IMG/VR virus record: IMGVR_UViG_3300025120_014916
Location: 64,001-128,000 of that record
Reading direction: 5' to 3' (one strand)
Source: a virus
Length of the DNA stretch: 64,000 nucleotides
Numbering within the stretch: position 1 is the stretch's first letter; each line of letters begins with the position of its first letter. Positions 25,276-63,646 of this stretch are shown one piece after another. The notes below the pieces were generated by a model. It did not search any database, was not told where the DNA came from, and saw only the letters and a program-made list of their open reading frames with translations. Both the position numbers and the translations under genes were made by a program.

Positions 25276-25288
25276 CTTGCCTTATTTG

Positions 25289-46206: not shown

Positions 46207-49200
46207 TCAAGTACCGAACGTCTTAACACCGTAAAGTCTTACTAGCCATTTCCCTGCGCCGTAAGTTCCTGCGTCAGACGTACCACCGTTTCCATTAGCA
46301 AGATATAAATAATAGTTATGAAGTCCATTTGTATATGCAGGATCTGTTGATCCTGGAAATGGGCCAATTTGTTCTTTATACTTACTTACAATCCAGTCGC
46401 CATCTGCATCAATTAATTTTGCAAAATCTCCACCAACTCCGCCACCTTCTGGTTGAAGATCTGATTTTGCATAAAGGTCTAAGTCGGGTTCTCCTGTTGT
46501 TGGAGCTTCTACACAAATCATTTCTGCCTTATATATTAAACCGTTTACTCCTGAATTAAGCCTTGCGAAATATGCGTTAGCTGCACCGGAACTGTCGCCT
46601 ATTATTCTTGCACCTGATCCGGCTGTTGACACCATATTATCAATATTTATTTTAAACGTTGTAACAACTTCATTGTTTATTTCTTGAACGTCAGCAGTTG
46701 GAGCGCCGTCCTCTCCGCCATCGAAACCATTACCACCAGCTGTTGTTGTACCAGCGTTCATTGTTACAGCGCCGCCATGATTAATTTCTAGTTTTGCAGC
46801 AACACTTGTTGCGTCTTCAGACTTAGCTGTAAAAAACGCTAGTTTTGTTTGGTTGTTAGCTGAATCAAATTCAGCTTCTGCGATTGCCTGAATAGAAGCA
46901 CAAATCTCTTGTGCATCTGTTCCAGATTCACCAATTGCCTGAAAATCTATTTGACCAACAACTTCATCAGCAACTAATGCTGCCTCACTAGATAATAAAT
47001 TAAGCCTGACTGGACTGTTATCACCTGTTGGGATTCCTAAAATAGTGAATCCGGCTGCAGGTACGTGGGCTACAAGAGAATTTGATCCGTCTTCGTCATA
47101 TTCAATATAAGCATCTGAATCTGTTCCAAATAGTAACTTTTTATCGTCTTGTATTAACACATCCTTGAAGAATGTAACAAGCTCAGAGCCACCTGTTGTT
47201 GCAAACTTTGCATAAAGATTACTGCCTTCTTTGATTACTAGTGCATCAGCTTGATTATCCGGTACTAATATTGCATTTTCACCTGCTTTAGAAAACTCGA
47301 GGGTACCTCCTGCGATTTCCAAATCGGTTCCAATTGTTAAGGGAGATCCACCGTTAAGTGACCCAGAAATTACAACGTCGCCACCGAATACTGCAGTTCC
47401 TAAGGTTGCTGTACCTCTAGAGCCTATCGATCCCGACACGAAGAAGTTAGTATCTGCGTAGAGAGATTCATTAATAGAGTTTGGTGACCCGTTAACACCT
47501 GATAGAATCAATACTCTTTTTGATTCTTTTATTCTAAATGTTTCTTGGTAAGGGTTTACGGTATTGCCTGAGCCGGCTGCGAGCGCTGATTGAAATATAA
47601 TGTCGCCGCCCGAAGCACTACCTTTACCTCGGCCTGCATTTAGAAATAGATCACCACCACCAAGATTATTATTACCACCAGCGGTCGCATTACCTGCATC
47701 GATGATAAATTTTCTACCTGCAACGTTGTTTGCAACCGTCGCTGATTCTATTGTTGCATCATTTGTATTTATTGTATCACCCAATATAACTGTGGGTATT
47801 CCGCCTCCGTTAACAACCAGTTTACCGCCCACAAGCATTGAAGATTGAACATGAACTGAATCATCTGCAGAAGATCCGGAAAGAATAACTTTGGCTGTAT
47901 TTGATTTAATAGTAACGCCACCTGCTGTCGACTCAATTTTAATAGCGTCATCTGCATTTCCGGATGTATTTGTTAACGATATCTTTTCATTAGCCGCAGT
48001 TCCGTGTGGAGTAAACACCATTTCAGTGGCTGAGGTTGGTCCTATTTTTAATGTTTTTCCATTTATCAAATTAGGTGCTATAAGCATGTCACCAGCAGTA
48101 GCGTCTATCTTAATAGCATCAGTGCCAGTACCGGCTGCAGTAATAATAATTGATGAATCATTTGCACCAACTTGTGCAATTGTTAAATCTTCTCCTGCAG
48201 TAGAAGAAGTGACAGTCAAGTTTACATCATCTGTTCCGTCGATAGATATTGTGGTTCCATCAATTGTCACAGCACCGGAAGCATTTACATCAAAAGTCGT
48301 ACCATCCATCGTGAACGTTCCATCAATATCTACATTATCTAGATTTGAAACTCCATCAACAGCAAGATCAGTTGTAACTGTCAAATCACCTGCAATAGTT
48401 GTTGTTGAAGCTGCACCTGCTGCTATTGTGACATCAACTTGTCCATCTGTTGCGTGTTCACCTTCAAGCTTAAGACCTGTTGTCATTGCAGTATTTGTAC
48501 CGTCACTTTCTGCAACTTGTAATTCTAATGTTCCCGCCTCGTCTGTTTCATCAGATTCGCTAATAGAAGCAACAATTCCAGCAAACTGTGTGCTATTGTT
48601 TCCTTCGTCTTCACCAAAGAATGTAATCTTACCAAGTATTTCACCGTCCTCTGTGTCTGCTGCGTCCTTAAGAAATTGCAATTCACCAGAAGAGGCTGCT
48701 GTTGTATTTGTTGTTTTGATTGTTACAACAGGTTTTCCATCGGTTGCGGAATCAATTATAACTGCCGGACTAGTAACTGTCAATGATGTCGAAGCTGCAA
48801 TTGATTGTGTCGCTGCGGTTGTTGTCATTGAAGTTGCATCTAAAGTTGCTGCACCCGTTACATCAATATCTAGAATACCTGCATCAATTTGAACTTCAGA
48901 TGCCGAATCTGCGTCTGCATCTATATGAAATGCGACGCCGGCAGTATGCGCAGTCTTTAAAATAATGTTACCAGCAGCGTTAGTGGATTCAATATCAATT
49001 GGATGAGCGCCAGTTGAAGTGAAATCTAGACCACCAGCAGAAGTAATGCCAACTGCTGCTGCTGCAGTTCCTGCAGAATCGATTGTTATAGCAGTACCCG
49101 CATCAAGTTCAACAGTTGCTGCGTTAACGTCTACTTTTGTAGAAGTATCATGACCCACTGTTATTGTTTTTGCTTGACTGATATTACCAATTTCGATATT

Positions 49201-52038
49201 TGATGTATTAGCATCTGCTCCAATCTTTATAATTTCAGATGATCCGAGCTGGAGACCGGGAGCTGCGTCTTTAATAAAGTGCTCTTGCCCTGTACCAATT
49301 TTAAGTGATTTTTCATCAGCTATGTATATATCGCCCCATTCATTTGTTGTAGTTCCTAGGTCACTTCCGCCAGAAGCGCTTGGAGATAAGTTTTTATTGA
49401 CTTCAAATGAGTTGGTATCATTCTGCCACTGGAATGTTTTATCAGTAGTACCTTTAATAGTAATACCGCCGCCATCTGCTGTAGTATCTGATGCAGCTGC
49501 AACATTAAAAACCATTGAACCTGCTGAACTGTGATTGGCATCAAGTGTTATTTGAGTTGCACTATTAATTGCAGTAATTGTCCTTGTACCGCTATTTGCT
49601 GTATTGAAAGCACCGGTTCCGGAGGCTTTTACAACTGTTTGACCAATAATCATTCCGGTGGTCGATGCCACATTAACAGTTGCATTTCCCGTGGTTAGAT
49701 TAGATGTTGCACTTACACTAGAAATTGCTACAACTGATCCTAATTCTATATTTTTATCATCAACTATCAATGTTGAACTGTTAACAGTCGTTGTTGTGCC
49801 ATTAACTACTAGATCACCTGCTACTACAACTTCGCCAGTTGATGATATTGTAAGTCTGTCTGTATTGCTTCCTGCATCAAATCTGATTTTGTCAGTGCTA
49901 TGATCATAATAAATTTGTCCGGATGCTGCAGCTGCGTTATCGCCAAATTGAATCAAACCAATATTGTTCGCAGAGCCTACCAACTGAATAGCTGGCCTTG
50001 CGTCATCTTCACTAATTACTGTTGCTGTTGTTGAATATACACCTCCTGATGATTGGTCACGTTTTGCATGGACCTCAGCTTGTGCCTGTTCTGTTCCGGC
50101 GCCTAGGCGTTCAACACTAAGATTAGCTTTTGTAAATGTCAGGTCGCCAGTACTTGCTCCTGTTGCTGTTGTTGTCCCAAGAGCAAACTCATCACGAGAT
50201 TCATCCCAGATAAATGCGGCATTATCGCTAGAGCCTCTTTCAATTATAAAGCCGGCGTCACCTGAAGGTGTTCCGGTGGTTCCATTTGCTAATTCAATTA
50301 ATTTATCTGAAGTTTTGACGCTTCCATCGAAAATTGATGGGCCTACGACTGTAAATGTATTTGAACCTGATACTGTCATCGAACCGGTTACAGTCATTGA
50401 ACCTGATATGGAAAGGTTTGCACCTACATTAGATCCGGATGCTGCTACTATTTCTACGTTACCGGAGACTATTAATGCATCATTTGATCCAGAAGCACCT
50501 ATCTTAAGTGGTGATGATCCCCTGAGTTCACCTTTTACTACTTGGTCACCCTCAACTACGAAAGTAGTGGCTTCACCAAACCTTCTTACTGTTATAACTT
50601 CAATGTTTCTAGAATTAAATCCAACTCCATCAACAACACGAGTAGTCGCATTTCGATGATCCGGATCACTTAGTACAATTAATTCTTGCAAGTCTGTGGT
50701 TGTCGTTCCTTCTGGAACAAAGCAAGGTTTTTGGAATATTGTTCCGGAAACAACTAAGTCACCTGCAATTACAGTTACCCCTGATGTTGCAGGTAGTCTT
50801 CCTGTTGTACCACACGCCCCAGATATATAAGTACTGATATCTGATGGAAGGGCTGTTGTTGCAGCATTCAAACCGTAACTCTTAGTTGCAGCAACTCCGC
50901 CACCCTGAATAACAACTTGATTTGTGCTACCGTCAACTAAAATAGCACCTTGCTTTTTTACTGGTGCACCTGAAATAATAGAAGAGCCCTCAACACGGAA
51001 ATCTGCAGTTTTACCGTCTTCATTGAAAACTGCAATATTTGATGCAGCAACAATAAAGTTAGAACCTGAGATTATTGTTCTTTTAAGACCGCCGCCGGCG
51101 TAGGTTGAACCAAAACCAATTACAACTTCACCAGTATTTGAACTGGTTAGGCTTTGTCCTATTACAGTGCTATAGTTTTGTTCTGTTTTGTTAAATATTC
51201 CACCCATAACATTAGAGTACGATCCGGATACCTTATTATAAGCCCCACCAAATATTCCTGAAAAATCAGAGCCACCTGAAGCTAGATTAGTTGTTCCAGA
51301 TATGTGATTATCTCCGCCTCCAACAATTACACTTGCACTTGAACCTGAGATAAGATTGTTCTTTCCGCCGAATATTGCATTTTTTGTATTTGACGTCAAT
51401 TGTGTTGGCTTAGTTGCGTTACCAAAACCTCCAACAACAGCATCATGCTCTCCTGAACCGGTTACTTTATTACCAAATGCAATACTATTTGTCCCAGAAG
51501 CTAATGGGCCATCACCAATAGCAACTGAATGTGTACCTGCTGCTAGCGGGTCTAATGCTGGTGTACCATTATATTCGTCATAATAGTGAAGACCTTCAAG
51601 CACATCATTTGTTATTGTACTTTTAATTGTTAGCTGACCATTTGATGCAGAAGTAATTTGAATTCCTGCAGCTGCAACAAGATATGAAACACCGTCAGCT
51701 GTATGGTGAATGGATCCACTTATAGACCCACCGAAGTTGCGGCCGGCGTCTTTAACAACAAGGGATCCGGAAATATAAGTATCGCCTTGAAGTAATACTG
51801 CTCCACCGTTTGAGCCGTCCTTAGAAGTCTGTGAACCACTTATAAAAATTGATACATCATTTCCGATATCTGTATATGCAGGCGCAGCTGGATTACCTCC
51901 AAGCTCATTTGGCGCTACTGACTCACTATAAACAGAAAGTTCTAGTTTTTTATGAACTATACCGCCGGAAGGCGAGCTTCCTGTCATTATTACTTTAGCT
52001 GTTCTTATTTGATTAGCTGTAAAATCTCTAACTGCCAT
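46207..52038 (-). CDS. Long tail fibre / adhesin (1943 aa)
   Basis: G/S/T/A/D-rich; YadA-head-like repeats (SVAIG..PLASGTNSIAFG); repeated ISGS/VSGS motifs; internally duplicated fibre modules. Confidence 0.85.
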   Translation of the reverse strand: MAVRDFTANQIRTAKVIMTGSSPSGGIVHKKLELSVYSESVAPNELGGNPAAPAYTDIGNDVSIFISGSQTSKDGSNGGAVLLQGDTYISGSLVVKDAGRNFGGSISGSIHHTADGVSYLVAAAGIQITSASNGQLTIKSTITNDVLEGLHYYDEYNGTPALDPLAAGTHSVAIGDGPLASGTNSIAFGNKVTGSGEHDAVVGGFGNATKPTQLTSNTKNAIFGGKNNLISGSSASVIVGGGDNHISGTTNLASGGSDFSGIFGGAYNKVSGSYSNVMGGIFNKTEQNYSTVIGQSLTSSNTGEVVIGFGSTYAGGGLKRTIISGSNFIVAASNIAVFNEDGKTADFRVEGSSIISGAPVKKQGAILVDGSTNQVVIQGGGVAATKSYGLNAATTALPSDISTYISGACGTTGRLPATSGVTVIAGDLVVSGTIFQKPCFVPEGTTTTDLQELIVLSDPDHRNATTRVVDGVGFNSRNIEVITVRRFGEATTFVVEGDQVVKGELRGSSPLKIGASGSNDALIVSGNVEIVAASGSNVGANLSISGSMTVTGSMTVSGSNTFTVVGPSIFDGSVKTSDKLIELANGTTGTPSGDAGFIIERGSSDNAAFIWDESRDEFALGTTTATGASTGDLTFTKANLSVERLGAGTEQAQAEVHAKRDQSSGGVYSTTATVISEDDARPAIQLVGSANNIGLIQFGDNAAAASGQIYYDHSTDKIRFDAGSNTDRLTISSTGEVVVAGDLVVNGTTTTVNSSTLIVDDKNIELGSVVAISSVSATSNLTTGNATVNVASTTGMIIGQTVVKASGTGAFNTANSGTRTITAINSATQITLDANHSSAGSMVFNVAAASDTTADGGGITIKGTTDKTFQWQNDTNSFEVNKNLSPSASGGSDLGTTTNEWGDIYIADEKSLKIGTGQEHFIKDAAPGLQLGSSEIIKIGADANTSNIEIGNISQAKTITVGHDTSTKVDVNAATVELDAGTAITIDSAGTAAAAVGITSAGGLDFTSTGAHPIDIESTNAAGNIILKTAHTAGVAFHIDADADSASEVQIDAGILDIDVTGAATLDATSMTTTAATQSIAASTSLTVTSPAVIIDSATDGKPVVTIKTTNTTAASSGELQFLKDAADTEDGEILGKITFFGEDEGNNSTQFAGIVASISESDETDEAGTLELQVAESDGTNTAMTTGLKLEGEHATDGQVDVTIAAGAASTTTIAGDLTVTTDLAVDGVSNLDNVDIDGTFTMDGTTFDVNASGAVTIDGTTISIDGTDDVNLTVTSSTAGEDLTIAQVGANDSSIIITAAGTGTDAIKIDATAGDMLIAPNLINGKTLKIGPTSATEMVFTPHGTAANEKISLTNTSGNADDAIKIESTAGGVTIKSNTAKVILSGSSADDSVHVQSSMLVGGKLVVNGGGIPTVILGDTINTNDATIESATVANNVAGRKFIIDAGNATAGGNNNLGGGDLFLNAGRGKGSASGGDIIFQSALAAGSGNTVNPYQETFRIKESKRVLILSGVNGSPNSINESLYADTNFFVSGSIGSRGTATLGTAVFGGDVVISGSLNGGSPLTIGTDLEIAGGTLEFSKAGENAILVPDNQADALVIKEGSNLYAKFATTGGSELVTFFKDVLIQDDKKLLFGTDSDAYIEYDEDGSNSLVAHVPAAGFTILGIPTGDNSPVRLNLLSSEAALVADEVVGQIDFQAIGESGTDAQEICASIQAIAEAEFDSANNQTKLAFFTAKSEDATSVAAKLEINHGGAVTMNAGTTTAGGNGFDGGEDGAPTADVQEINNEVVTTFKINIDNMVSTAGSGARIIGDSSGAANAYFARLNSGVNGLIYKAEMICVEAPTTGEPDLDLYAKSDLQPEGGGVGGDFAKLIDADGDWIVSKYKEQIGPFPGSTDPAYTNGLHNYYLYLANGNGGTSDAGTYGAGKWLVRLYGVKTFGT

Positions 52039-52041
52039 TTT

Positions 52042-52665
52042 TTAACATCCTCTTTCGATTGCTTGCATATAAACTTTTCCTTTATAGCCGGCTTTTGATA
52101 CTTCTATTGTTACTGCTGTTGTTGATATTGCTGTAACAAATGCATTCACATCTTCATCTGCTGATACTGTAACGATTGGTGTACAACTAAATGCTGCTTG
52201 AAATGTATAGGTATATTGATCTTGACCAGACACTTTTGGAAATTGCAGTGTTGCTACTTCTAATTCTTTTCCGATATTTGGCATTTCATATACTCCGTCT
52301 TCTAATGCTTGATAGTATACATATCCTGTATAATATCCACTAGTTCTAAATATGCACTGAGAAGTTGTTATATCCGTAATAAAAACATTAAAGTTAGGAT
52401 TGTTTATTGTGGCATCGTCTGTTGTTCTTGCAAGTGTTGTTGCTATTACTGCTGGAGGTGTATCAAAACAGCATGGAAATTCATGCACTAGTTCAGACTG
52501 GTTGTCAAAATATTCCCAATATGCGCCCCATGTAAACGTTGATACGTTTTTAAGATCATCACACAATAGCGGTCTTGGCTTCTTTCTTATATAACGATAT
52601 ATTTTCCTATATCTATTTTGGTCTCTTACAAGAACCTTTTTGTCGTCTTTTATGAAAGTTGCCAT
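52042..52665 (-). CDS. Tail-fibre-associated protein with two tandem small beta domains (H-type lectin-like)
   Basis: Two similar units, F...F.TPPAVIAT...NVFIT.IT...YYQALE and F..AFSCTPIVTVS...NAFVTAIST...YMQAIE; directly upstream of the fibre. Confidence 0.55.
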   Translation of the reverse strand: MATFIKDDKKVLVRDQNRYRKIYRYIRKKPRPLLCDDLKNVSTFTWGAYWEYFDNQSELVHEFPCCFDTPPAVIATTLARTTDDATINNPNFNVFITDITTSQCIFRTSGYYTGYVYYQALEDGVYEMPNIGKELEVATLQFPKVSGQDQYTYTFQAAFSCTPIVTVSADEDVNAFVTAISTTAVTIEVSKAGYKGKVYMQAIERGC

Positions 52666-52682: not shown

Positions 52683-54053
52683 CTAAATTATTTCCGCTGC
52701 TATAGAAGATAAATATGACCTTTCTCCCTTTTTTAACTGTACATGGCCTGCAACTTTTTCATTTTTAAATTTTTCGCTAACAATAGTCAGACCATTAGAG
52801 TGTGAATCTATGTAAGGCGTATCAATTTGATCAACATCACCTAGTAAAACAATTTTACTATTTTCGCCAACTCTTGTAATTACTGTCTTTAATTCATGAA
52901 TAGTGCAGTTTTGTGCTTCATCCATAATTAAAAAAGTATCAGCAAATGTTCTTCCTCTCATGAAAGCTAGGGGTGCAATCTCAATATCCCCCTTATCTCT
53001 CATTGAACTAAAGTATGTAAGGTCATTATCTTTCAAACCTTGACGAAAGTTATCCATGATTGGTGCTATCCATGGAAGCATCTTATCATTCATATCGCCC
53101 GGTAAAAATCCTATATCCCTACCAACAGGCTGTACATTTCTAGTGATAACAATTCTTCTATATCTTCCTGCATGCAATCCTTCTATTCCTGCTAATAATG
53201 TTAAGTAAGTCTTTCCGCTGCCCGCTAGTCCGGTTATTGAAACAAGTGGAATAGAATCATCATTCAAAAGGTTAATTGCATAAAGCTGTTCTCTATTTCT
53301 TTCTTTTACCCAAGCTAGACCACTACTCATTTCTTCACTACTTTTTAGTTTTTTAATATTGCCTTCCGAGTAAAATCCTAAAAAGGATTGACTTCCTGAT
53401 TTTAAACAAATAAATTCGTTTTCTAGAAATTTTCTTCCTAAACTCTTTTCTGCTGCAGTTAAAATGGTCTTATTATGTGAATGCAGATCAGAATAGCACA
53501 TATCTATAATATAATTGTCACTATCTTTTATTTCTATATCGACATAACCTCTATAGAATTCTTCATCTGCTAAATCTATTTTATCTTTAAGATAGTCTTG
53601 CGCAGTAATCCCCAGTGCATCACACTTAACTCTGAAGTTAATGTCTTTTGTTACCATTATGACAGGACATTTATTTTTTTGAGTTAATTCTAAAGCTAAT
53701 CCGATCATCTGATTGTCTGGGGAAGACGCGTCCAATCCTACTGGTACCTTGTATTTTGTTTTAATATCAACTTTTATTGTTTGATTACTTCTATTTTGTA
53801 TCTCTATGCCTGAATGTAAATTTCCAACCTTTCTTAAATTATCCAAATATCTGTTTACATATCTCGCATTTTCACCGATTATACCTTTTTTATCTTTAAA
53901 CCTATCTAATTCATCAAGTGCTACTAACGGTATAAGTACATCATTACCAGAAAAAGAATGAATTGAGCACCTATCGTAAAGCATCACGCTGGTATCTAAA
54001 ATAAATATTTTTCTATTTTTATCTGTTTTTAACTTAGACATTATACATTTCAC
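52683..54053 (-). CDS. phoH: PhoH-family ATPase with N-terminal PIN domain (PhoH2/YlaK type)
   Basis: ILDTSVML (PIN); SPDNQMI; VTKDINFRVK; GLAGSGKT; GFLPGD..KM.PW; FMRGRT; DEAQN; RVGENSKIVLLGD..QID. Confidence 0.95.
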   Translation of the reverse strand: MKCIMSKLKTDKNRKIFILDTSVMLYDRCSIHSFSGNDVLIPLVALDELDRFKDKKGIIGENARYVNRYLDNLRKVGNLHSGIEIQNRSNQTIKVDIKTKYKVPVGLDASSPDNQMIGLALELTQKNKCPVIMVTKDINFRVKCDALGITAQDYLKDKIDLADEEFYRGYVDIEIKDSDNYIIDMCYSDLHSHNKTILTAAEKSLGRKFLENEFICLKSGSQSFLGFYSEGNIKKLKSSEEMSSGLAWVKERNREQLYAINLLNDDSIPLVSITGLAGSGKTYLTLLAGIEGLHAGRYRRIVITRNVQPVGRDIGFLPGDMNDKMLPWIAPIMDNFRQGLKDNDLTYFSSMRDKGDIEIAPLAFMRGRTFADTFLIMDEAQNCTIHELKTVITRVGENSKIVLLGDVDQIDTPYIDSHSNGLTIVSEKFKNEKVAGHVQLKKGERSYLSSIAAEII

Positions 54054-54123
54054 CTTTTTTTTGTTTTTTTTAAGTAGACCGGTTATTATTATAAGTATAA
54101 CACGTTAAAAGGTATAAATAAAT

Positions 54124-54363
54124 ATGAAACAAAAATGCTTTGAAAAATGCTCTTCAGAAAAAAAGAATTGTAGTGTTAATGCATGCAGATACTGGATAGA
54201 AGCTAAGGAATATAACAACTGCTGTATAGTTGGCGCAAACTCTAGTGAAAAAATTACATTACAGAATATAGGTGAAATATTTAAAGTAACTAGAATGAGA
54301 ATATGTCAAATAGAAAAAATAGCTGTTAAGAAGCTTAAAGAAAAAGTTGTTTCGATACTGTAG
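54124..54363 (+). CDS. Stand-alone sigma70 region-4 HTH protein with Cys-rich N-terminus
   Basis: ITLQNIGEIFKVTRMRICQIEKIAVKKLK matches the region 4.2 consensus (TL.EIG..F.VTRERIRQIE..AL.KL); N-terminal C..C...C..CC. Confidence 0.85.
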   Translation: MKQKCFEKCSSEKKNCSVNACRYWIEAKEYNNCCIVGANSSEKITLQNIGEIFKVTRMRICQIEKIAVKKLKEKVVSIL

Positions 54364-54390
54364 TGTTTTTCACTAATAAAATAAAAAATG

Positions 54391-54420
54391 AAAAGGGGAT
54401 CAAATATGATCCCCTTTTTT
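54391..54420. terminator. Bidirectional intrinsic terminator between convergent genes
   Basis: Perfect 12-bp stem AAAAGGGGATCA / TGATCCCCTTTT with a 4-nt loop; T-run on + and A-run upstream. Confidence 0.88.
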
Positions 54421-54446
54421 AGCATAGTAAGAATGATTTAGATTAT

Positions 54447-54635
54447 CTATTCATTCTTATCATACGTCAAAGAACTTTTTACAAGATCAGCTGCAGCTTT
54501 TTTAACTTCGCGTAATGCTTTTCTTGCTCTAACACCTGCTGATTTATTACCTTGCGCATTTTTAAGTACATCTGTTTGAAGTGTTTCAACAAGTACTTTT
54601 AATTCTTCGTATTGTGTAACAATTGTTTCGTTCAT
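54447..54635 (-). CDS. Histone H1-like nucleoid protein (Hc1 family, short form)
   Basis: KNAQGNKSAGVRARKALREVKKAAADLVKSS matches the Hc1 core (GNKAAG.RARK....K); SD GAGGAG upstream. Confidence 0.85.
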   Translation of the reverse strand: MNETIVTQYEELKVLVETLQTDVLKNAQGNKSAGVRARKALREVKKAAADLVKSSLTYDKNE

Positions 54636-54646
54636 GATTATCTCCT

Positions 54647-54907
54647 CTAGTTTAAAAGAATTTTATTTTTGTTGCTGTCTTTATCTATATTATTACTATT
54701 TTCTTCTGCGTTAAAATTTGAACCAAACTTTTTTAAAAAACTAGCTATTTTTTTCATATTTTCATTATCCTCTAATGACATTGCAAGGTTAAGCATTATT
54801 TCTATTTTTTGCTCATCTGTTACGCCAAATTCTAAGATTGTTTTACAGATTTTTCTTGCCTCTTTTTTTCTATTTAATAACTCAATAGCTTTCTTTTTTT
54901 CTGACAT
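54647..54907 (-). CDS. Hypothetical 86-aa helical protein
   Basis: ORF coupled in the run chaperonin-like > Zn protein > this gene > Hc1. Confidence 0.6.
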   Translation of the reverse strand: MSEKKKAIELLNRKKEARKICKTILEFGVTDEQKIEIMLNLAMSLEDNENMKKIASFLKKFGSNFNAEENSNNIDKDSNKNKILLN

Positions 54908-54909
54908 TT

Positions 54910-55377
54910 TTACTCCACAATATCAACAATTACATTGTTTTTAATTTTAAAAATATTAGACGATGATACTTCTATAGTTTTTACATGTTGTTTTTCATCT
55001 ATTATCTCTCTTCTTAACACAACGACTTCACCCCATCTTTCTTCTTCAAATATGTCTACTATTTGTTCCCAATTAGATATATCAGTTTCTATTTTTATAA
55101 GTGCGTTTGTCAGCCTTTCTGGTAGCATGTATCCTAATTCTTCTATAGAGACTGTTAAACTGCTTTGATCTTTTCCGCCTCTTATCTCTGATCTACATAT
55201 GTCTTTAACGTGGTGCATCGTATCACAGTTGTTGCACTTTACTAGTTTTGGAATTACATTTCCATTCTTATCAAACTTAGAATATACTGGAAATTTGTGA
55301 CTAGGCATTTCTTTTTTTACAGCCCTATATATTGCTAAAACACAGTGACACTCTATTAAATGCTTAATTCCCTGCAT
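54910..55377 (-). CDS. Hypothetical putative Zn-binding protein
   Basis: ECHC ... KCNNC...H....C. Confidence 0.6.
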   Translation of the reverse strand: MQGIKHLIECHCVLAIYRAVKKEMPSHKFPVYSKFDKNGNVIPKLVKCNNCDTMHHVKDICRSEIRGGKDQSSLTVSIEELGYMLPERLTNALIKIETDISNWEQIVDIFEEERWGEVVVLRREIIDEKQHVKTIEVSSSNIFKIKNNVIVDIVE

Positions 55378-56614
55378 GTATGACCAGCCTATCTATTTGT
55401 GAATATATATTTTTTATACTGTTTACCTTTTTATTGACAAAATTTATCAAATTTTTTGGTAGATAATAGGCTGAACTATTAAGACTTACAACACAGAATA
55501 CTTTATTTGAATGACCGGTCAACCTCATCATATAATCAACTTCTCTTATAAAGTCATTATTAGAATATAAAATTTCAGGTATAAATAGTTTAATTGACTT
55601 ATTAGTAAACCTCTTTATCCTTTTAGATAATAGTTTTTTACTTTCTTCGTGCACTGTTATTTTATTTAATTTATTACTAAGAAAAGATCGATGAATTACT
55701 AGATCCGCTTCCGAAGCAACAGGTTTTATTTTAAAACCTTTTTTATGAAATGTTATTTCTCGACCTACCGATAAATTGCTTCGAACAGCTTGTGATATTG
55801 TCTCTCCCGTCCTACTAGAAACAATATTATCTTTATGCAGGACTGCTATATCATTTAGTACATTTATTGTATTTTCATCAAATGTTATGATAATAGGCAT
55901 AACTTCAAACTTGCTATGTGAATTATTATGTTTTATTACATGACTTACTTCATCTGACATTCCAAAACAAAAAATTACATGAGGTACTTTTGTTTTATTT
56001 GCCTGGTCAAGTAAATGGTGTATTTCGCCTATTGATTCTACATACCCGTCAATTATGATAAACTTGTAATCACTCATTGTGTGGAAGTCTTTACCTCCTA
56101 AAAATGATGTGTCGTAATCTAGATCAAAATTAAGAACGTTCTTTTTTTCAACATATATATCTGTTAACTTACTACTATGAATACTAACAGTGTACTCGCG
56201 CGAAGCATTTTCAATAATCCATTTAAAAATGGATTTTAACTCTTTAAATTTAAAGCTATCAATAAAGTATTTTGATGAATCTTTGCAAAATAGATGTTTA
56301 TCATAAATTTCTTTATTTTCTTTTGAAAAATACTTCTTAATAAAAAAGTCTCCCAAGTATGGGTATATCTTTTCACATTCAATAAATTCTTTTTTTAATA
56401 ATAACTTTAACTGTTCTTTGCACTCATTACCAGAAAAAGTATTTAAGTAGTTTAATGCTTGATCTGAAACTAAATTCATATCAGAGTAAAGACATTGCTG
56501 ACTATTCCTTAGATCATCGAACATTATATTGCTTTCATCTAAGAAATTATCAACTTCCTTTCTATTAAAAACTTTTTTCTTTTTAGGAATCACGCCATAA
56601 GTTGTTTGCTGCAT
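55364..56614 (-). CDS. Degenerate GroEL/Cpn60-like protein (apical domain kept, ATP-binding motif lost)
   Basis: YKFIIIDGYVESIGEIHHLLDQANKTKVPHVIFCFGMSDEV...VLNDIAVL...IVSSRTG aligns by eye to the GroEL apical domain. The GDGTTT position reads PYLGDFFI. The start may instead be a GTG overlapping the prkA stop. Confidence 0.7.
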   Translation of the reverse strand: MQQTTYGVIPKKKKVFNRKEVDNFLDESNIMFDDLRNSQQCLYSDMNLVSDQALNYLNTFSGNECKEQLKLLLKKEFIECEKIYPYLGDFFIKKYFSKENKEIYDKHLFCKDSSKYFIDSFKFKELKSIFKWIIENASREYTVSIHSSKLTDIYVEKKNVLNFDLDYDTSFLGGKDFHTMSDYKFIIIDGYVESIGEIHHLLDQANKTKVPHVIFCFGMSDEVSHVIKHNNSHSKFEVMPIIITFDENTINVLNDIAVLHKDNIVSSRTGETISQAVRSNLSVGREITFHKKGFKIKPVASEADLVIHRSFLSNKLNKITVHEESKKLLSKRIKRFTNKSIKLFIPEILYSNNDFIREVDYMMRLTGHSNKVFCVVSLNSSAYYLPKNLINFVNKKVNSIKNIYSQIDRLVIHAGN

Positions 56615-58511
56615 ATGTCAATATCTCTTCAGCTGAATTCTCATTGTAACCATATTCTTCCATTAGAGTTACAAGCATCTCGCTGTATCTTTTCTTTTGG
56701 TTGTCATCTCTTGATTTTGATTTTGTAACAATCCTGGAAATGTCCTTTACAGATGTAATAAGGTATTGTTCTACTGCATCTTTTAGAGGCCCATAAGATT
56801 TATAATCAACTGTTTCTTTTCTTCGTAACTTAGAAAACATATAAGCAGTTACATCAGATCTAAAACCATCTCTAGCTGATCCGACCACACCAATCATCTC
56901 TTCAATAGATTTCATGAATTTTTCATCAGGTTGTCTTTCTTCTCTGGTTATTTTGTCTTTAAATCTAGTCTTAGTTGTATAAGCCTCTGCGTTATCTAGA
57001 TAAGAATCAAAAAGTGACTGCGCTTGTTCTTCGTAAGCTGTTATAAAAGCTTTCGCGATTTCTGTTTCTAGTATTCTTAAGTATTCTTCGCGAATAATCT
57101 TACCTAATATCTCTGTGTATCTACTTTTTGCTTCTTCGTCAATTATTTGTTCTTTTACTTGTCTAGACAGCGAGTCAATAACATTTATAGGAGTTATCAT
57201 GTTTTTATCAGAATCTGAAAGAGCTGCGTCCAATGCTTTCATGATAAATCTAGTTGAAATTCCTTCCATTCCTTCATGCTTAGCTTCGTCTTTTAAGTCT
57301 TTAATATCTACTTTTTTAACACGACCTTTTTCTATAATTGCTTCACCATTATAGATTTTCATTTTAGTAAGTAGATCGCACTTATTTGATGGCTTAAGTC
57401 TACTCATAACTGAAAACATGGAAGCTATTTTTAAAGCATGAGGTGCAATATGCGCTTTATTAAAGTCTGATTTTCTAATAACTTTTTCATAAATTTTCTG
57501 TTCTTGATCTAATTCTAAAACATAAGGTACTTCAATCTTTAACACCCTATCCAGAATAGCCTCGTTGGTGTGTTCAGATTTAAATCTGTTCCACTCTGAT
57601 TCGTTGCAATGTGATAATATTACGCCATCAAAGTAGATCATATCGTTCTTACCTGGGGAAGGTACACGCTTTTCTTGTGTTGCAGTTAACATTGTATGCA
57701 AGAATTCAATTTCATTTTTAAATACTTCAACAAATTCAACGATACCGCGGTTACCAACGTTAAACGCACCGTTAAGAGATAGGACTCTGGGATCATCTTC
57801 TGGATAAAGATCTAGTTTACTAATGTCTTCAGTTCCAATCAATACAGAGACATCCTGGGAGTTTGCATCCATAGGAGGCACCACAGCTATACCTCTGCGC
57901 CCTCTTTGAGAAAAAGTAGTCTGGGTGACTGGAAAATTTTCATATTTTCCATCAAATTCTGTCATAAGCCGGTGGCGACAAACTGGGCACAGATCACCTT
58001 CTAAATGTACACCCAGAATATCTTCAAATTCTGACCTTAGTCCTCGAGGAAGTAAGTGAAGTGGCTCTTCTTTGATTGGACAACCTTCCAAGTGATAAAA
58101 AGGCTGGGAGGACTCTAAGGACCTTTTTACAGCTTCTACTAACGCAGATTTTCCGGCACCAACTGGACCCATGAGCAAAAGTACTTGCCGGCTTTCTTCA
58201 CCTTTATGTGCTGCTGACTTTAAAAACCTCATCAGTTTGTTAATAACTGATTCCATTCCAAAAAACTCTTTTTCAAAATAGTCGTAAGTTCTAATCTTGT
58301 CACCATTAAATATGTCTCTATATTGGTCTGAATCAACATCAACAGTATCCATTCCAAACTTTAAGATGGCTTCGTAAAGTCTTTTATGGGCAAGTTTAAC
58401 TGTTTCCGGTTCTTCTTGTATGACTCTTAAGTAATCTAGAAAAGTTCCTTTAAACTTTTTATATTTTGAAGCTGATCTTTGTTTTTTGATCATATCTAAA
58501 AAATTGCTCAT
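56583..58511 (-). CDS. prkA: PrkA/YeaG-family AAA+ ATPase (annotated serine kinase)
   Basis: FFGME..I; GEESRQVLLLMGPVGAGKS (Walker A); GCPIKEEPL; NRGIVEFVEVFK; TATQEK; NEAILDR; GMEGISTRF; YGYNENSA.EIL.Y. 642 aa is the usual family length. Confidence 0.96.
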   Translation of the reverse strand: MSNFLDMIKKQRSASKYKKFKGTFLDYLRVIQEEPETVKLAHKRLYEAILKFGMDTVDVDSDQYRDIFNGDKIRTYDYFEKEFFGMESVINKLMRFLKSAAHKGEESRQVLLLMGPVGAGKSALVEAVKRSLESSQPFYHLEGCPIKEEPLHLLPRGLRSEFEDILGVHLEGDLCPVCRHRLMTEFDGKYENFPVTQTTFSQRGRRGIAVVPPMDANSQDVSVLIGTEDISKLDLYPEDDPRVLSLNGAFNVGNRGIVEFVEVFKNEIEFLHTMLTATQEKRVPSPGKNDMIYFDGVILSHCNESEWNRFKSEHTNEAILDRVLKIEVPYVLELDQEQKIYEKVIRKSDFNKAHIAPHALKIASMFSVMSRLKPSNKCDLLTKMKIYNGEAIIEKGRVKKVDIKDLKDEAKHEGMEGISTRFIMKALDAALSDSDKNMITPINVIDSLSRQVKEQIIDEEAKSRYTEILGKIIREEYLRILETEIAKAFITAYEEQAQSLFDSYLDNAEAYTTKTRFKDKITREERQPDEKFMKSIEEMIGVVGSARDGFRSDVTAYMFSKLRRKETVDYKSYGPLKDAVEQYLITSVKDISRIVTKSKSRDDNQKKRYSEMLVTLMEEYGYNENSAEEILTYAANNLWRDS

Positions 58512-58550
58512 TGTTTCCTCTTTTAATCTATGCTGTTATACATTTAGTAT

Positions 58551-58579
58551 ATTATACTGTTGTTAATGAATTGTTTAAA
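58551..58579 (-). promoter_or_regulatory. Sigma70-like promoter TTTAAA-N17-TATAAT upstream of prkA
   Basis: Consensus -10 at 58551-58556 in the spoVR-prkA gap; AT-rich background. Confidence 0.4.
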
Positions 58580-59918
58580 TTTCCCATACATCATTTTCAA
58601 TAATTGTAAATAATTTTACATCGCCTTCTTGCCATAAATGCCTTATGCTTTCCACTACATTGTCTGCATAGTCCAGATCTAGGTCGCGGCCATCATGTTC
58701 ATGCTTTAAAACCAAAGTTCCGTCTGAGTCGATTCTATCTACATAGATGTGTGGTATTGTATTGACGCCTGTATTTTTGATCATTTCGCTTCTTACTATT
58801 TGCCATTCCTCTTGATCTGATACTTCTGCTATGAATATATCGCCATTCTTCTTTCTTTCGTAAGCAAACATGTTTAATTCTCTAAAATCTTCTTCTTCTA
58901 GGAATAATCTAATTGCTGATACATCATCATGTATTTCTCTAACTTCAAAACATTTTTCTAATCCAAACTCTTTTTCAAGTTTTTGGAATATATAGAAACC
59001 TACGTGATAGGGGTTAACTCCCCCAATATGTGGCCGGACAACTGCATTGTGCATTTTAAGAAAAGGAACATGCATTCCATCATCTAGTTGAAGTTCATGT
59101 AGAATTTTGTAATGCCAAAAAGATGCCCAGCCTTCATTTAATATTTTTGTTTTTATCTGGGGCATAAAATAATGACTTTCATCTTTAACTATTTCAATTA
59201 AGTCTAATTGCCATTTTTCATAGCCGCGACTATACTCTAATAAAAAAGATAATAAATCATGATCTTGTTTAAGCAATCTTTTATTTAAAACATTGTAGTC
59301 TAATAATATTCCTTTTTCTTTATAAATGTTAAATCTATCAATCTCTGCTGTTTTAATTTCTGATTTTGATCTTCTGGGAATTCCGTACCTTTCTGTTTGA
59401 AACCTGACAGTGTGTAAACTATCTAAAAACTTTTCTACTTTCTCTTGACCTATATTAGGATCTTCGGTGTACTCTTGAATTCTACGTTTAGCATTTCTCA
59501 TTTTAGAAACTATGGTTTCCGGATCTGTTTTACTAAAACATCTATTATTTTTAAAAAAGTCACTATGACCTACGCAATGAGCCATAATCAAGACTTGCAA
59601 ATAAAAATCATTTTGTAGCATTAAATAAGCTATTGAAGGATTTGAGTTAATGATTAATTCATAAGGAAGACCACTTTGACCCATATTATACATAAAGTGT
59701 GTTTTTTCAAATGATTTACCATAAGACCAGTGATTATAGTGACTAGGCATTCCATGATATGCCATATGTCCAATCATTTCATAATAGTCACAAATTTCAT
59801 AATTAATAGGATACCAGTCTAGATCATATTTTTTTGCAATTTCGCATATCTTATCATCAAATACTTTAAGGTCTTCTATTTTATACTTATCTTTATTGAA
59901 CTTCATATTTACCACCAA
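58575..59918 (-). CDS. spoVR: SpoVR/YcgB family protein
   Basis: GMPSHYNHWSYGK; LPYELIINSNP; AHCVGHSDFFKNN; ES.YFMPQIKTKILNEGWASFWH; NPYHVG; L.H.HDGRDL. Confidence 0.95.
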   Translation of the reverse strand: MVVNMKFNKDKYKIEDLKVFDDKICEIAKKYDLDWYPINYEICDYYEMIGHMAYHGMPSHYNHWSYGKSFEKTHFMYNMGQSGLPYELIINSNPSIAYLMLQNDFYLQVLIMAHCVGHSDFFKNNRCFSKTDPETIVSKMRNAKRRIQEYTEDPNIGQEKVEKFLDSLHTVRFQTERYGIPRRSKSEIKTAEIDRFNIYKEKGILLDYNVLNKRLLKQDHDLLSFLLEYSRGYEKWQLDLIEIVKDESHYFMPQIKTKILNEGWASFWHYKILHELQLDDGMHVPFLKMHNAVVRPHIGGVNPYHVGFYIFQKLEKEFGLEKCFEVREIHDDVSAIRLFLEEEDFRELNMFAYERKKNGDIFIAEVSDQEEWQIVRSEMIKNTGVNTIPHIYVDRIDSDGTLVLKHEHDGRDLDLDYADNVVESIRHLWQEGDVKLFTIIENDVWEI

Positions 59919-61065
59919 GAAGTCTAGAAAACTCAGGCCAGATATCTTTTTTACCTGAGACTTTTACCACCTTAAAACTATCTGATGACAGTGGCTCGAA
60001 TACTTTTGCCATTTCTTCTCCCCACATAGATTCTTTCTGGCCTTTTATTTGAATATAACCAGATAATTGACTAAGATTAATTAATCTTTCCATATAATCT
60101 ACTGCTTTAACATTGTCTTCTTTCCAGTTTTCACCATCTGAGCAGTGGAAAGTATATATATTCCAAGCGCTTGGGGAATATCTTTCATTTACAATATCAT
60201 GTGCCATTTTAAGACCGGAGCTTATGTAAGTACCACCCGATGAACCTTTTTTAAAAAAATCATCTTCGTTAACTTCTTGAGCTTCTGTTGAGTGAGAAAT
60301 AAATACTGTTTCAATATTTTGATATCTATACCTTATAAACTGATATAGTAAGAAAAAGAACGATCTGGCCAAATATTTTTTAGTTTTTGTCATTGAACCT
60401 GACGTGTCCATTATGAAAAATATTACTGCACTAGTAACCGGTTTTTTAGTAACCTCTATGTGCTTATATTTCAAATCATCATCATGAAAAGTAAATCTTT
60501 CATCACCTTCCGGATCGTGTGTACCGTTTCTTATTGCAGCTTTTTTTCTTCTTATCTTATTTTTAAGTGTTTCTTTTTTTGAAAGTCTAGGTCTTATCCC
60601 TTTTGTTCTATATCCTTTTCTTTTTACTTTTTCAGAAAATATTTCTGCAGATTTCTTTTTAACTAGATCAGGCAAGTCTAAATCATCAAATAGATACTGG
60701 GCTAGTTCATCTAAAGATACTTCAACATCATAGTAGTCTTCGCCCTTTTCGTTTCCCGGCTTATCAGGGTCTCCTTTACCTTTTTGTTTTTGTCCTTCTT
60801 TTATCTTCTGACCCTTTTTAATATCAGATCCAGGTGCAGCACCTACCCCCTTAGATCCGTTTCCTTGATCGTAAATGAATCTGTATTCTTTCATACCTCT
60901 TACAGGTATCTTAATCTTCTTTTTTCCACTCTTTCCTATAATGCTTTCTTCAGCTATAATATCATGAATGCCTTCTTTGATAGCTTTATCTATTTTTTCT
61001 TTATGTCTTCTTCTATCTGATGCTGATCGATCAGCATTAGTATTGTGTTTTTTAAATATTGACAT
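59893..61065 (-). CDS. yeaH: YeaH/YhbH (DUF444) vWA-domain protein
   Basis: ASDRRRHKEKI; IPVRGMKEYRF; FIMDTSGSM (MIDAS DxSxS); A.EV.E..FF...SGGT..SSG; YSPSAWNIY.FHCSDGENW. Confidence 0.95.
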   Translation of the reverse strand: MSIFKKHNTNADRSASDRRRHKEKIDKAIKEGIHDIIAEESIIGKSGKKKIKIPVRGMKEYRFIYDQGNGSKGVGAAPGSDIKKGQKIKEGQKQKGKGDPDKPGNEKGEDYYDVEVSLDELAQYLFDDLDLPDLVKKKSAEIFSEKVKRKGYRTKGIRPRLSKKETLKNKIRRKKAAIRNGTHDPEGDERFTFHDDDLKYKHIEVTKKPVTSAVIFFIMDTSGSMTKTKKYLARSFFFLLYQFIRYRYQNIETVFISHSTEAQEVNEDDFFKKGSSGGTYISSGLKMAHDIVNERYSPSAWNIYTFHCSDGENWKEDNVKAVDYMERLINLSQLSGYIQIKGQKESMWGEEMAKVFEPLSSDSFKVVKVSGKKDIWPEFSRLLGGKYEVQ

Positions 61066-61243
61066 TAATAAATTACCTCTCTATGCTATAATTATACCTA
61101 TAATTATTATGAGGTATATAGAAATTTATGAATAATGAATTATTATGTATAATAAAAGTACATATGTACATTTATAAAAATACTTTAAAGAATAATTATA
61201 TTTAAATGTTAGGATAATAAAATTAATCTAGGAATAAGTTGAG

Positions 61244-62017
61244 ATGAAAGACATTAATATACTAAACACAATTTTAAAAGATTTACAAAAATTAAATGAA
61301 AAAAAGAAAAAATTATCAAAGAAGCAAATGAAAATTGCACAAGCTGCACCACCTCCTGACGAAATAACAGGAGCAGACTTTAAAGCACTTAATAAGAATG
61401 AAGATAGGGATCTAGATCCTGGATATAAGCCGGGCAGAAGCCCGGGTGAACAGGATAAATTAAAAAAGGCAACAGCTGCTTACAGAAAAGCTGTTAAGAC
61501 ACCCGGAAAAGCTGATGATAATAAAGCCATTAAAGCTCGAAATAAGGTTGCCGAAAGCAAAACTATAAAAATAGACCCAGATATTATTCGTGAGTATATT
61601 GAGGAGTTAATAGAAGAACAGAAACTATATGCTGCACTTGAAGAAGTTTATCAAATTGAAGACGCTGAGTCAGAAATAAGAGATCTTTTAGAATATTCAG
61701 AAATTAGTGACTTGGATGAAAAAAAGCGTCGCAAAAAAAGAAAGAAGCGCAAAAAAAGAAAATCAACAAAATCAGGTCGTACGCTTTCTAAGCCAACTAA
61801 AAAATCGCTTGATAAAAAGGCAGATCGTAGGTGTTTGACTAGAGGATCTGTTTATGCAGAATTTAGAGCAGGTTTGGGTGCTTATTACACCTCAGGTTCT
61901 AGAAAGGGAATGACTCCACAACAATGGGCCCATGCTAGAGTTAATTCTGCGAACCCAAATAAGTCATGGGCTAAAGTTAAAAAGCGTAAAAAGTGCCCTA
62001 AAAAGAAAAAGAAATAA
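61244..62017 (+). CDS. Highly basic protein with a C-terminal DUF5824-like domain
   Basis: Basic run KKRRKKRKKRKKRK; SLDKKA...GSVYAEFRAGLGAYYTSGSRKGMTPQQWAHARVNS resembles the viral DUF5824 pattern (RG.AAW..G.RPG....QW..ARVNS). Confidence 0.6.
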   Translation: MKDINILNTILKDLQKLNEKKKKLSKKQMKIAQAAPPPDEITGADFKALNKNEDRDLDPGYKPGRSPGEQDKLKKATAAYRKAVKTPGKADDNKAIKARNKVAESKTIKIDPDIIREYIEELIEEQKLYAALEEVYQIEDAESEIRDLLEYSEISDLDEKKRRKKRKKRKKRKSTKSGRTLSKPTKKSLDKKADRRCLTRGSVYAEFRAGLGAYYTSGSRKGMTPQQWAHARVNSANPNKSWAKVKKRKKCPKKKKK

Positions 62018-62019
62018 TA

Positions 62020-62727
62020 TTATAGATCGCTAAGATTTTGATCTTCAATATTGTTCATTGTATCGAAAAGTTTTTGTAAAAGGCCTTGACTTCTAAGTAC
62101 CTTATATATGATATTCTCATCAGATAACTCTCCTGCCTTTTCAAGACCTGATGCTCTCATTTTCTTAAGTTTTTTAATCATTTTTACTATATCAGTAGTC
62201 GAGGACTTTTTTATGGAATCTTTTAAGATACTATTAATCTCTTTAGCAACCTTTTTTGATCCTCTTTCTATGCTTTTAATATCAATACCGCTCTTAAACT
62301 TTTTAGGTTTGACTACCCACTCATCTTCTTCTACACTATATACTCCTGAAGATGAGTGTGGTTCATTTGTGTCTTGTGGATACAATTCAACTTCTATACC
62401 TTTAAGTTCTATGTCATGCCTGTCATTCCAGAAAGATTTTTTTGCATTAAAAAATTCTTTTACCAGGTCTTCATCTTCATTTAGAGATGACATGTCTACT
62501 AGTATATGTAAGTCAATATCACTAAATACAGTGTAGTTGTAATTTGCATAAGATCCTGTCATTGTAATGTCGACAACGTCTATAGGGATTCCTAGATAGT
62601 CAATAAATGCGTCTGATATTTTAAGTAATGCTTTCCTAAATTCGGGAAGCATTTCCTCTCCTATCCATACTTTTTTACTTAGTTGATTATGAGGCAAGTG
62701 AGATTTTATTGTTTTCTTGATGTTCAT
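62020..62727 (-). CDS. Pol-beta superfamily nucleotidyltransferase
   Basis: DITMTGSYANYNY..FSDIDLHILVD (GS-x-DxD); third acidic residue in EVELY. Confidence 0.85.
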   Translation of the reverse strand: MNIKKTIKSHLPHNQLSKKVWIGEEMLPEFRKALLKISDAFIDYLGIPIDVVDITMTGSYANYNYTVFSDIDLHILVDMSSLNEDEDLVKEFFNAKKSFWNDRHDIELKGIEVELYPQDTNEPHSSSGVYSVEEDEWVVKPKKFKSGIDIKSIERGSKKVAKEINSILKDSIKKSSTTDIVKMIKKLKKMRASGLEKAGELSDENIIYKVLRSQGLLQKLFDTMNNIEDQNLSDL

Positions 62728-63646
62728 TTATCCAATCCTTCCTGTATTTCATTAAAGCTTTTTCTTTAGCTTTAGCTTCAATAACAATATCGAGTCTATG
62801 TCCGTAATTTTCTATCTTATCATAAATATAGTCTGAATGGGCATTCAGCACTTTCTTTTTTCCTTCTTTGAGACATGCTGACTCAGAGTAGTGACACGTT
62901 GGTACAATTTCTCCCCACGTCGACACAGCGATGGCAAGCGCATCTTTTTCGCTAATGCCGCCACTCCGAAACTTGTGATGATGATAATCAAATACAATCG
63001 GGCAGCCGGTATTTTTGTAGACTCCTTCATAAAGATCCTGTGTTGAAAATAAGTTTGGTCTATCGTCGTTTTCTATAGTCAGTCTAGATTTTACACTGTC
63101 ATTGAGTAAATTAAAGTTTTTGCAAAATCGCTCCATTGCACTTTTACGATCCCCATACGAAGCGCCTATATGAATATTTATTTTTGCATTATGATTTCGT
63201 GGCATTCCCATAGTATCCATAATCTTACCGTGAATAGAAAGGTCAACAATACTGTTTGCAACAACATATTCTTTGTTTGAAGAAAGAATATTAAAAGGCC
63301 CGGGATGAAAAGATAAACGTATGCCATTTTCTTTTGCATAGTCACCTGCTCTTTTAAGATTATAAGCAATTTTTTCCCATTGCTGCAAATCTTCTAACAT
63401 ATATTCAGATGCCCATGGAAATAAGCAGGATGACATTCTAAAGACTTTTATGTTGTGCCTTTGATTCCACATAAGGATAGGTAAAATGTCCCTTGTATTT
63501 AATTCTGCTAGCTCAGATGCATATTCTACGCCCTTAGCTTTAAACGTTCTTTTTATCATACTTCTATTTGTTGTGATCCTTTGCTTTTTAGGTCTTTCTG
63601 ACAGTTCCATGCATATGCATGCGTAGCCTAGTTGAATTTTTGACAT
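62687..63646 (-). CDS. uvsE: UV damage endonuclease UvsE/UvdE
   Basis: LGYAC; FRMSS.LFP; RLSFHPG.F; INIHIG; RLTIENDD; PIVFDYHHH; CHYSES; HSDYI; IEAKAKE.A. Confidence 0.95.
   Translation of the reverse strand: MSKIQLGYACICMELSERPKKQRITTNRSMIKRTFKAKGVEYASELAELNTRDILPILMWNQRHNIKVFRMSSCLFPWASEYMLEDLQQWEKIAYNLKRAGDYAKENGIRLSFHPGPFNILSSNKEYVVANSIVDLSIHGKIMDTMGMPRNHNAKINIHIGASYGDRKSAMERFCKNFNLLNDSVKSRLTIENDDRPNLFSTQDLYEGVYKNTGCPIVFDYHHHKFRSGGISEKDALAIAVSTWGEIVPTCHYSESACLKEGKKKVLNAHSDYIYDKIENYGHRLDIVIEAKAKEKALMKYRKDWINEHQENNKISLAS

Follow-up and report, generated by a model that had tools for sequence, protein, structure and literature searches.

We have analysed a 64,000-nucleotide window of viral DNA, bases 64001–128000 of the 136,409-bp IMG/VR record IMGVR_UViG_3300025120_014916, which carries the three genes of the cellular PrkA/YeaG-YeaH-SpoVR module, a module that is very widespread in cells and biochemically little understood. 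The three open reading frames (ORFs) occupy positions 56583–61065 of the window, to which all coordinates below refer unless a contig or locus is named; all three are minus-strand genes in head-to-tail arrangement, and the 5' end of spoVR overlaps the stop of yeaH. The trio consists of the following genes, with lengths in amino acids (aa):

59893–61065, minus strand: yeaH/yhbH-type gene (DUF444; von Willebrand factor A (vWA) type with a metal-ion-dependent adhesion site (MIDAS) motif), 390 aa, which opens the operon
58575–59918, minus strand: spoVR/ycgB-type gene, 447 aa from the TTG at 59918, or 443 aa from the likely ATG at 59906
56583–58511, minus strand: prkA/yeaG(spdA)-type AAA+ gene, 642 aa

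All three genes are intact, and their Pfam matches and motif positions agree with the initial annotation, which had read them as complete genes transcribed in the order yeaH, spoVR, prkA. The YeaH product matches DUF444 (PF04285, 1.9e-115) and, weakly, VWA_2 (E 0.0064), and contains a complete MIDAS-type set of the form DxSxS...T...D (DTSGS at residue 220, GGTY at 277 and SDGEN at 309), being a DUF444 protein for which a vWA fold and a metal-binding MIDAS are predicted from sequence. Its nearest NCBIfam model, TIGR02877 (YhbH), is matched over the full length at 407.9 bits, below the cut-off of 467.95. The SpoVR product matches SpoVR (PF04293, 6.7e-111) and SpoVR_C (PF24755, 1.2e-06), has the motifs HCVGH at 110 and NEGWASFWH at 257 (numbering of the 443-aa form), and scores 234.5 bits, below the equivalog cut-off of 679 for NF008737. 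In PrkA, the AAA_PrkA domain (PF08298, 5e-143, profile positions 2–357 of 358) is followed by the PrkA C-terminal domain (PF06798, 5.3e-75, positions 1–255 of 255), and from end to end the protein can be aligned with 9xip_A (E 1.5e-98), a chain of solved structure that bears the name 'Serine protein kinase'. The Walker A motif GPVGAGKS spans residues 115–122, of which G115 and K121 do not vary among 44 diverse representatives; a weak Lon-like similarity is found close to it (E about 0.003). With 397.7 bits against a cut-off of 576 for the curated enterobacterial PrkA model NF011999, the protein is a member of the family and not an equivalog. Comparison of the operon genes with the PADLOC-DB defence models gave no membership, and only marginal matches of AAA type were obtained (DolB, 9.7e-06 over 90 residues; IetA, 0.004).

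The genes that surround the trio establish where it comes from. The same contig encodes the terminase large subunit TerL, a portal protein and a T4-type major head protein, the viral hallmarks that the initial annotation had proposed to look for, together with two tail sheath proteins, a baseplate wedge protein, a ribonucleotide reductase, a DnaB helicase and an SbcCD-like nuclease, with nearly all genes sharing one strand. The nearest relatives of the capsid protein are found in Microcystis phage Mel-JY01, Flavobacterium 'immuto' phages, the uncultured huge phages LR756508 and LR756511, RM378, RsoM2USA and XacN1, and CheckV rates the 136,409-bp record as 40% complete, which suggests a genome of roughly 340 kb. 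Since terminase, portal, T4-type capsid, sheath and baseplate genes accompany the trio, its source is a large myovirus, namely an uncultured jumbo phage from the sea, and the contig is no chimera. As to the flanks, which had been described as phage-type on both sides, family matches confirm PIN-PhoH (52683–54053) and UvdE (62687–63646), whereas the supposed tail fibre (46207–52038) found no confirmation.

The only observation that we could find in favour of an assembly chimera or a recently captured host fragment, that is, of host DNA mis-joined to a phage contig, is that cellular PrkA homologues exist at 51–60% identity. Against it, the GC content of the triad (0.332) is close to that of the contig (0.344), the triad and its neighbours are co-stranded with overlaps between adjacent genes, the gene order is unlike that of every cellular locus, and the phage PrkAs form a monophyletic clade with a long stem. 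Furthermore, 30 independent IMG/VR contigs, the longest of 278 kb, carry the block together with its phage neighbours (UvdE, nucleotidyltransferase and PhoH), which in practice excludes a chimera and makes this explanation vanishingly improbable.

In all 30 of these IMG/VR relatives yeaH, spoVR and prkA are contiguous and in this order, two loci being cut off upstream of spoVR, and the identity of their PrkAs to that of the window ranges from 64 to 88%. Most of these loci also share a wider synteny, in which UvdE, the nucleotidyltransferase gene and a DUF5824 gene precede the triad and PIN-PhoH follows further on. More than 120 metagenome protein clusters at ≥80% identity were found, several of them from Tara Oceans, so that the lineage is common in the sea. 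A blastn search of the 5.5-kb region against 50,697 phage records gave no match, and relatives are thus found only at the protein level. For comparison, 80 cellular loci were fetched, corresponding to the 80 highest-ranking among over 600 matches to a single search pattern derived from a 10-sequence alignment, a procedure that biases the sample. Wherever the contig reaches far enough, these loci have the order prkA, yeaH, spoVR, so that the phage order is a cyclic permutation of the cellular one and is fixed in the phage clade. The description of the phage order as rearranged, relative to a usual cellular order prkA-yeaH(-spoVR), is therefore borne out by these 80 loci set against the window and its 30 relatives.

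In a maximum-likelihood tree of 107 PrkAs, which is unrooted, is subject to a long-branch warning and inherits the bias of the cellular sample, the phage PrkAs form a single clade with a support of 100 in the Shimodaira–Hasegawa-like approximate likelihood ratio test. This clade is nested with a short cellular subtype (support 96) of patchy occurrence in Bacillota, Bdellovibrionota, Binatota, Myxococcota, Acidobacteriota and Pseudomonadota. Over the trio genes, pairwise ratios of nonsynonymous to synonymous substitution rates (dN/dS) are 0.02–0.07 (0.02–0.07 for YeaH and 0.02–0.06 for PrkA), including a pair in which dS is unsaturated (0.44–0.66), and such purifying selection indicates that the phage needs the three proteins. 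The trio is a genuine phage operon, vertically inherited over a long time.

A separate observation concerns a group of PrkA homologues of about 1000–1570 aa (P0151, P0153, P0155–P0157, P0185, P0192 and P0194), in which the PrkA C-terminal half lies at the end of the protein and two to three stretches match; these may be fused or insert-bearing forms.

Phage carriage of the trio is already on record and is not new. A tblastn search with PrkA matched 17 phage records, and PHROGs v4 holds families for all three genes. The suggestion that the trio is an unprecedented phage cargo thus had to be abandoned, as the Thermus phages phiYS40/TMA (record of 2006), the Ralstonia phage RsoM2USA and the PHROGs families predate it; within the present clade the triad is moreover a routine cargo, being carried by all relatives fetched. 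In phiYS40/TMA the genes YS40_056–059, annotated as 'conserved bacterial protein', 'SpoVR' and 'serine kinase', carry a phage triad that is likewise permuted, with DUF444 followed by SpoVR and, further on, PrkA. That locus differs from ours in that a 616-aa gene with no Pfam match is inserted between spoVR and prkA, a GroEL-like match was not found in it, and its PrkA, only about 33% identical, sits on a separate long branch elsewhere in the tree, which points to an independent acquisition. RsoM2USA is likewise a jumbo myovirus; its T4-type capsid protein is distantly related to that of the present phage, and its triad is complete (ORF30-29-28), the genes having been annotated by BLAST name and not studied by its authors (PMC8504454). 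However, it has the cellular order prkA, yeaH, spoVR, and its PrkA falls among those of the canonical alphaproteobacterial type. Taken together, the two placements suggest at least three separate acquisitions of the trio by phages.

Among cellular loci, the closest are those of the short subtype (for example Clostridium aciditolerans, C. thailandense and metagenome-assembled genomes of Pseudomonadota), which have the same three Pfam families at full length and with the same motifs, with identities to the phage proteins of 51–60% for PrkA, 40–48% for YeaH and 36–45% for SpoVR. They differ from the phage loci in that GroEL-like, Cys-rich and Hc1-like genes are absent from their flanks, and the residue after the first His of the SpoVR motif is Cys in the phage clade but Val or Ala in the cellular subtype. 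The well-supported description of the locus is thus that of an intact phage version, maintained by selection, of a module known from cells, which its permuted order and its GroEL-like/Cys-rich/Hc1 extension set apart as a variant and not as a new kind of system. The permuted order, the Cys in the SpoVR metal motif and the added GroEL-like partner make the phage versions compact natural variants for reconstitution.

This extension lies directly downstream of prkA and consists of four further genes and a terminator-like site:

55364–56614, minus strand: shortened GroEL-like gene, 416 aa, overlapping the 3' end of prkA by 32 nucleotides (nt)
54910–55377, minus strand: Cys-rich ORF (CxC...CxxC), 155 aa, overlapping the GroEL-like gene by 14 nt
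54647–54907, minus strand: 86-aa ORF, kept in 21 phage loci and with no significant family match
54447–54635, minus strand: Hc1-type histone H1-like gene (chlamydial type), 62 aa, PF07432 at 5.3e-12, last gene of the unit and present in 22 phage loci
54391–54418, minus strand: terminator-like hairpin with a 12-bp stem (5 G-C pairs) followed by a T run, closing the seven-gene unit

The hairpin is the sole terminator-like site on the minus strand within 54000–62200, and the GroEL-like gene appears to be part of the same unit as the trio, although it lies outside 56583–61065; its overlap with prkA suggests translational coupling to a protein-binding partner. The AlphaFold2 model of the GroEL-like protein (mean predicted local distance difference test score 79.9) has a GroEL-like fold, with a Foldseek match to GroEL at E 9e-18 and probability 1.0, and a profile of 16 phage homologues matches GroEL in the PDB at 5.5e-26 over GroEL residues 130–410, which correspond to the intermediate and apical domains. 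The protein thus has the apical and intermediate parts of GroEL but lacks a complete equatorial ATPase domain: at 416 aa it falls short of GroEL (about 525–550 aa) by over 100 residues, no GDG occurs anywhere in it, and against the NCBIfam GroEL models it scores 17–31 bits, with cut-offs of 352–582. From the order of the helices, and not from a residue alignment, we infer that 'YPYLGDFF' stands in place of the GDGTTT phosphate loop of GroEL; the protein is probably not an ATPase. Its gene evolves fast, with dN/dS of up to 0.5. The Cys-rich ORF has no significant family match (weak zf-CCHC_5 only, E 0.17) and is possibly a zinc ribbon.

The four-gene extension is found in the window and in 21 relatives, the GroEL-like and the Cys-rich genes each occurring in 22 phage loci. 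It is absent from seven more basal phage loci whose downstream sequence extends over 8 kb, from all of the 80 cellular loci (0/80) and from the loci of phiYS40 and RsoM2USA. This distribution across basal phage and cellular loci indicates that the triad is older and that the extension is an invention of a sub-clade.

As for SpoVR, its structural model gives, in a VIA-align comparison, a top 50 of fold matches made up almost entirely of zincin metallopeptidases. The HxxxH and NEGxA...H motifs are conserved at ≥97% over 102 SpoVRs from phages, bacteria and archaea, but the catalytic Glu of zincins (HExxH) is absent from every SpoVR examined. Other approaches gave nothing: Foldseek with the model against the PDB found no match at E ≤0.001, the ESM Atlas no usable match, and HMMER at E up to 10 no peptidase family; hhalign of the 102 SpoVRs with 10 DUF885 proteins returned a probability of 0.2%, and a literature search for a link between SpoVR and metallopeptidases found none. 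The zincin reading is drawn from VIA-align and the motifs, and we regard SpoVR as weakly resembling zincin metallopeptidases, at the level of the predicted fold. This lead belongs to the SpoVR family at large (window 58575–59906; loci L001, L002 and L009–L117) and is not specific to the phage.

A proposal on the function of the operon can be built on what is reported for the cellular homologues. In carbon-starved E. coli, the RpoS-driven and largely nonspecific degradation of stable cytoplasmic proteins, which yields amino acids and ATP, is reported to need YeaG, now renamed SpdA (PMC13684143, October 2026). Assays of B. subtilis PrkA revealed no kinase activity but a slow hydrolysis of casein that depends on ATP and the Walker A motif; the Walker A Lys (K108) is needed for its ATPase, protease and sporulation functions (PMC9512850). 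Based on these two sets of results, we propose that the operon may be a virus-run version of the cellular degradation programme, namely an ATP-dependent YeaG/SpdA-type system for protein degradation or remodelling that recycles host protein, a proposal for which we see the chances as evenly balanced. In such a system PrkA (= YeaG/SpdA) would be the AAA+ motor, YeaH its vWA/MIDAS partner or adaptor, SpoVR a metal-binding subunit, possibly of zincin-like fold, and the phage-only GroEL-like protein, seemingly devoid of an ATP loop, an added substrate-binding part; stable proteins of the host cytoplasm would be broken down to supply the amino acids and energy for making virions in nutrient-poor marine hosts. 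With its AAA+ motor and vWA/MIDAS partner, the system can be set beside the AAA+ proteases Lon and FtsH and beside AAA+/vWA pairs of the MoxR-vWA kind, and a third subunit of possibly zincin-like type would parallel the FtsH pairing of ATPase and zinc peptidase; however, the trio has neither a Lon nor an FtsH protease domain, and the analogy is one of working principle and not of family membership.

A number of points weigh against this degradation proposal. As all three proteins score below the NCBIfam equivalog cut-offs, their equivalence to the E. coli and Bacillus proteins is an assumption. The protease activity of PrkA is very slow, taking 24 h on casein (PMC9512850), and the requirement for YeaG in bulk proteolysis is genetic and not a direct activity (PMC13684143). 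A GroEL-like partner fits a role in folding or assembly equally well, and the literature that we searched for a functional study of any phage copy contains none, in line with the initial annotation, which knew of no characterised phage version.

The Hc1-like gene (5.3e-12), co-operonic in 22 phage loci, leads to a different reading, in which the module regulates, pushing the infected cell into or out of a stationary- or dormancy-like state while the Hc1-like protein condenses the host nucleoid. It is also in favour of signalling that yeaG and prkA mutants show regulatory phenotypes in nitrogen starvation (PMC4664914) and in sporulation (PMC9512850). Nevertheless, the kinase activity of PrkA was tested and not found (PMC9512850), the regulatory phenotypes could lie downstream of proteolysis (PMC13684143), and the sequence identifies no signalling target, so that we consider dormancy control unlikely. 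The initial annotation had placed it next to proteostasis or remodelling as a purpose of the phage module; a remodelling or proteostasis machine is the most plausible reading, and dormancy control is retained as its rival.

The GroEL-like gene raises a further alternative, as it overlaps prkA, is confined to phage loci, and belongs to an operon that stands amid structural and glycosylation genes of the same strand. Some large phages encode their own chaperonins, and the AAA+/vWA pair, working in the style of MoxR-vWA systems, together with the GroEL-like protein might fold, load or mature phage proteins, such as those of the jumbo capsid or tail, and would leave host proteins untouched. However, the triad predates the addition of the GroEL-like gene, which the seven more basal phage loci lack within 8 kb downstream, it also occurs in cells without any phage, and the GroEL-like protein is fast-evolving and seemingly without an ATP loop; an assembly machine of the phage's own appears to us improbable.

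Returning to the degradation proposal, its most elaborate form would be that a widespread clade of marine jumbo phages has a starvation-type bulk proteolysis of its own that liquidates the host proteome, run by the permuted YeaH-SpoVR-PrkA machine with a zincin-derived SpoVR subunit, an ATPase-dead GroEL-like substrate receptor and an Hc1-like compaction of the nucleoid, fuelling virions in starved cells; this composite is possible, though we hold it to be doubtful. If true, bulk proteolysis by the phage would be the viral counterpart of the E. coli YeaG/SpdA programme described in 2026. The phage versions also make it a testable hypothesis that viruses recycle host proteomes in oligotrophic oceans. 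Furthermore, the apparently independent acquisition of the trio by at least three phage lineages, and its retention under strong purifying selection in one abundant marine lineage, suggest that the three genes form a unit that works on its own and can be transplanted, and that a virus profits from control over protein turnover. The results also bear on a marine virome study in which spoVR is the most abundant 'sporulation' auxiliary gene and was read as sporulation control (PMC8940887). Because the module occurs mostly in non-sporulating bacteria, a sporulation reading of viral spoVR is unlikely, and the counting of viral spoVR as a 'sporulation' auxiliary gene in that study is thereby corrected.

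Two non-coding regions are relevant to the transcription of the unit:

58512–58574, minus strand: spoVR-prkA spacer, 63 nt, holding most of a TTTAAA-17-TATAAT match (58579–58551) and a GAGG ribosome-binding site
61066–61243, no strand assigned: divergent intergenic region between yeaH (minus) and the DUF5824 gene (plus), 178 nt, AT-rich, the likely start region of the operon

A separate candidate promoter before prkA had been suggested, and this does not hold up: matches of the TTTAAA-17-TATAAT type number 46, against 38.5 ± 7.7 in shuffled sequence, which is not significant, and the length of the gap is unconserved. Among relatives the gap spans −20 to 68 nt, a single outlier of 727 nt apart, and −20 to 33 nt in the more distant ones, which indicates that a promoter of prkA's own is not conserved and leaves room for an internal promoter confined to the close sub-clade. 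The outlier (L010:7274–8000), with 727 nt in place of the ≤68 nt seen elsewhere, suggests an insertion. The divergent region contains several TATAAT-like boxes, none of which is distinguishable from background. A k-mer search over 41 intergenic regions of the contig returned TATAAT-like words only, so that no phage-specific promoter class can be assigned. The 8-mer AGCATAGA, shared by the regions upstream of yeaH and prkA, was considered as a signal and rejected, having 5 matches against 2.9 expected, a number reached by 16 of 100 shuffles, and being unconserved in relatives.

Between UvdE and the operon lie two further genes:

61244–62017, plus strand: DUF5824 gene, among the contig's very few plus-strand genes
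62020–62727, minus strand: gene with a nucleotidyltransferase domain (PF01909; phrog_36119, 6.3e-52)

On the other side, between the terminator and PIN-PhoH, a 79-aa ORF (54124–54363, plus strand) matches sigma-70 region 4 (PF04545, 8.5e-09) and is kept in most relatives at 45–73% identity; its product could be a small transcription factor that resembles or mimics sigma. The 1943-aa ORF at 46207–52038, the one once taken for a tail fibre, has no Pfam match and a GC content of about 0.40 as compared with 0.33; the ORF next after it (52042–52665) has a weak H-type lectin match, and several glycosyltransferase genes lie between the 1943-aa ORF and the baseplate genes (24100–26554 and 44218–46137, minus strand). 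The window contains no tRNA genes. Outside it, at contig positions 51365–52432 (L006:17365–18432, minus strand), a second AAA-type ATPase is encoded, which is MoxR-like (phrog_1297, 2.1e-53) and indicates that the phage encodes more than one AAA+ protein of remodelling type.

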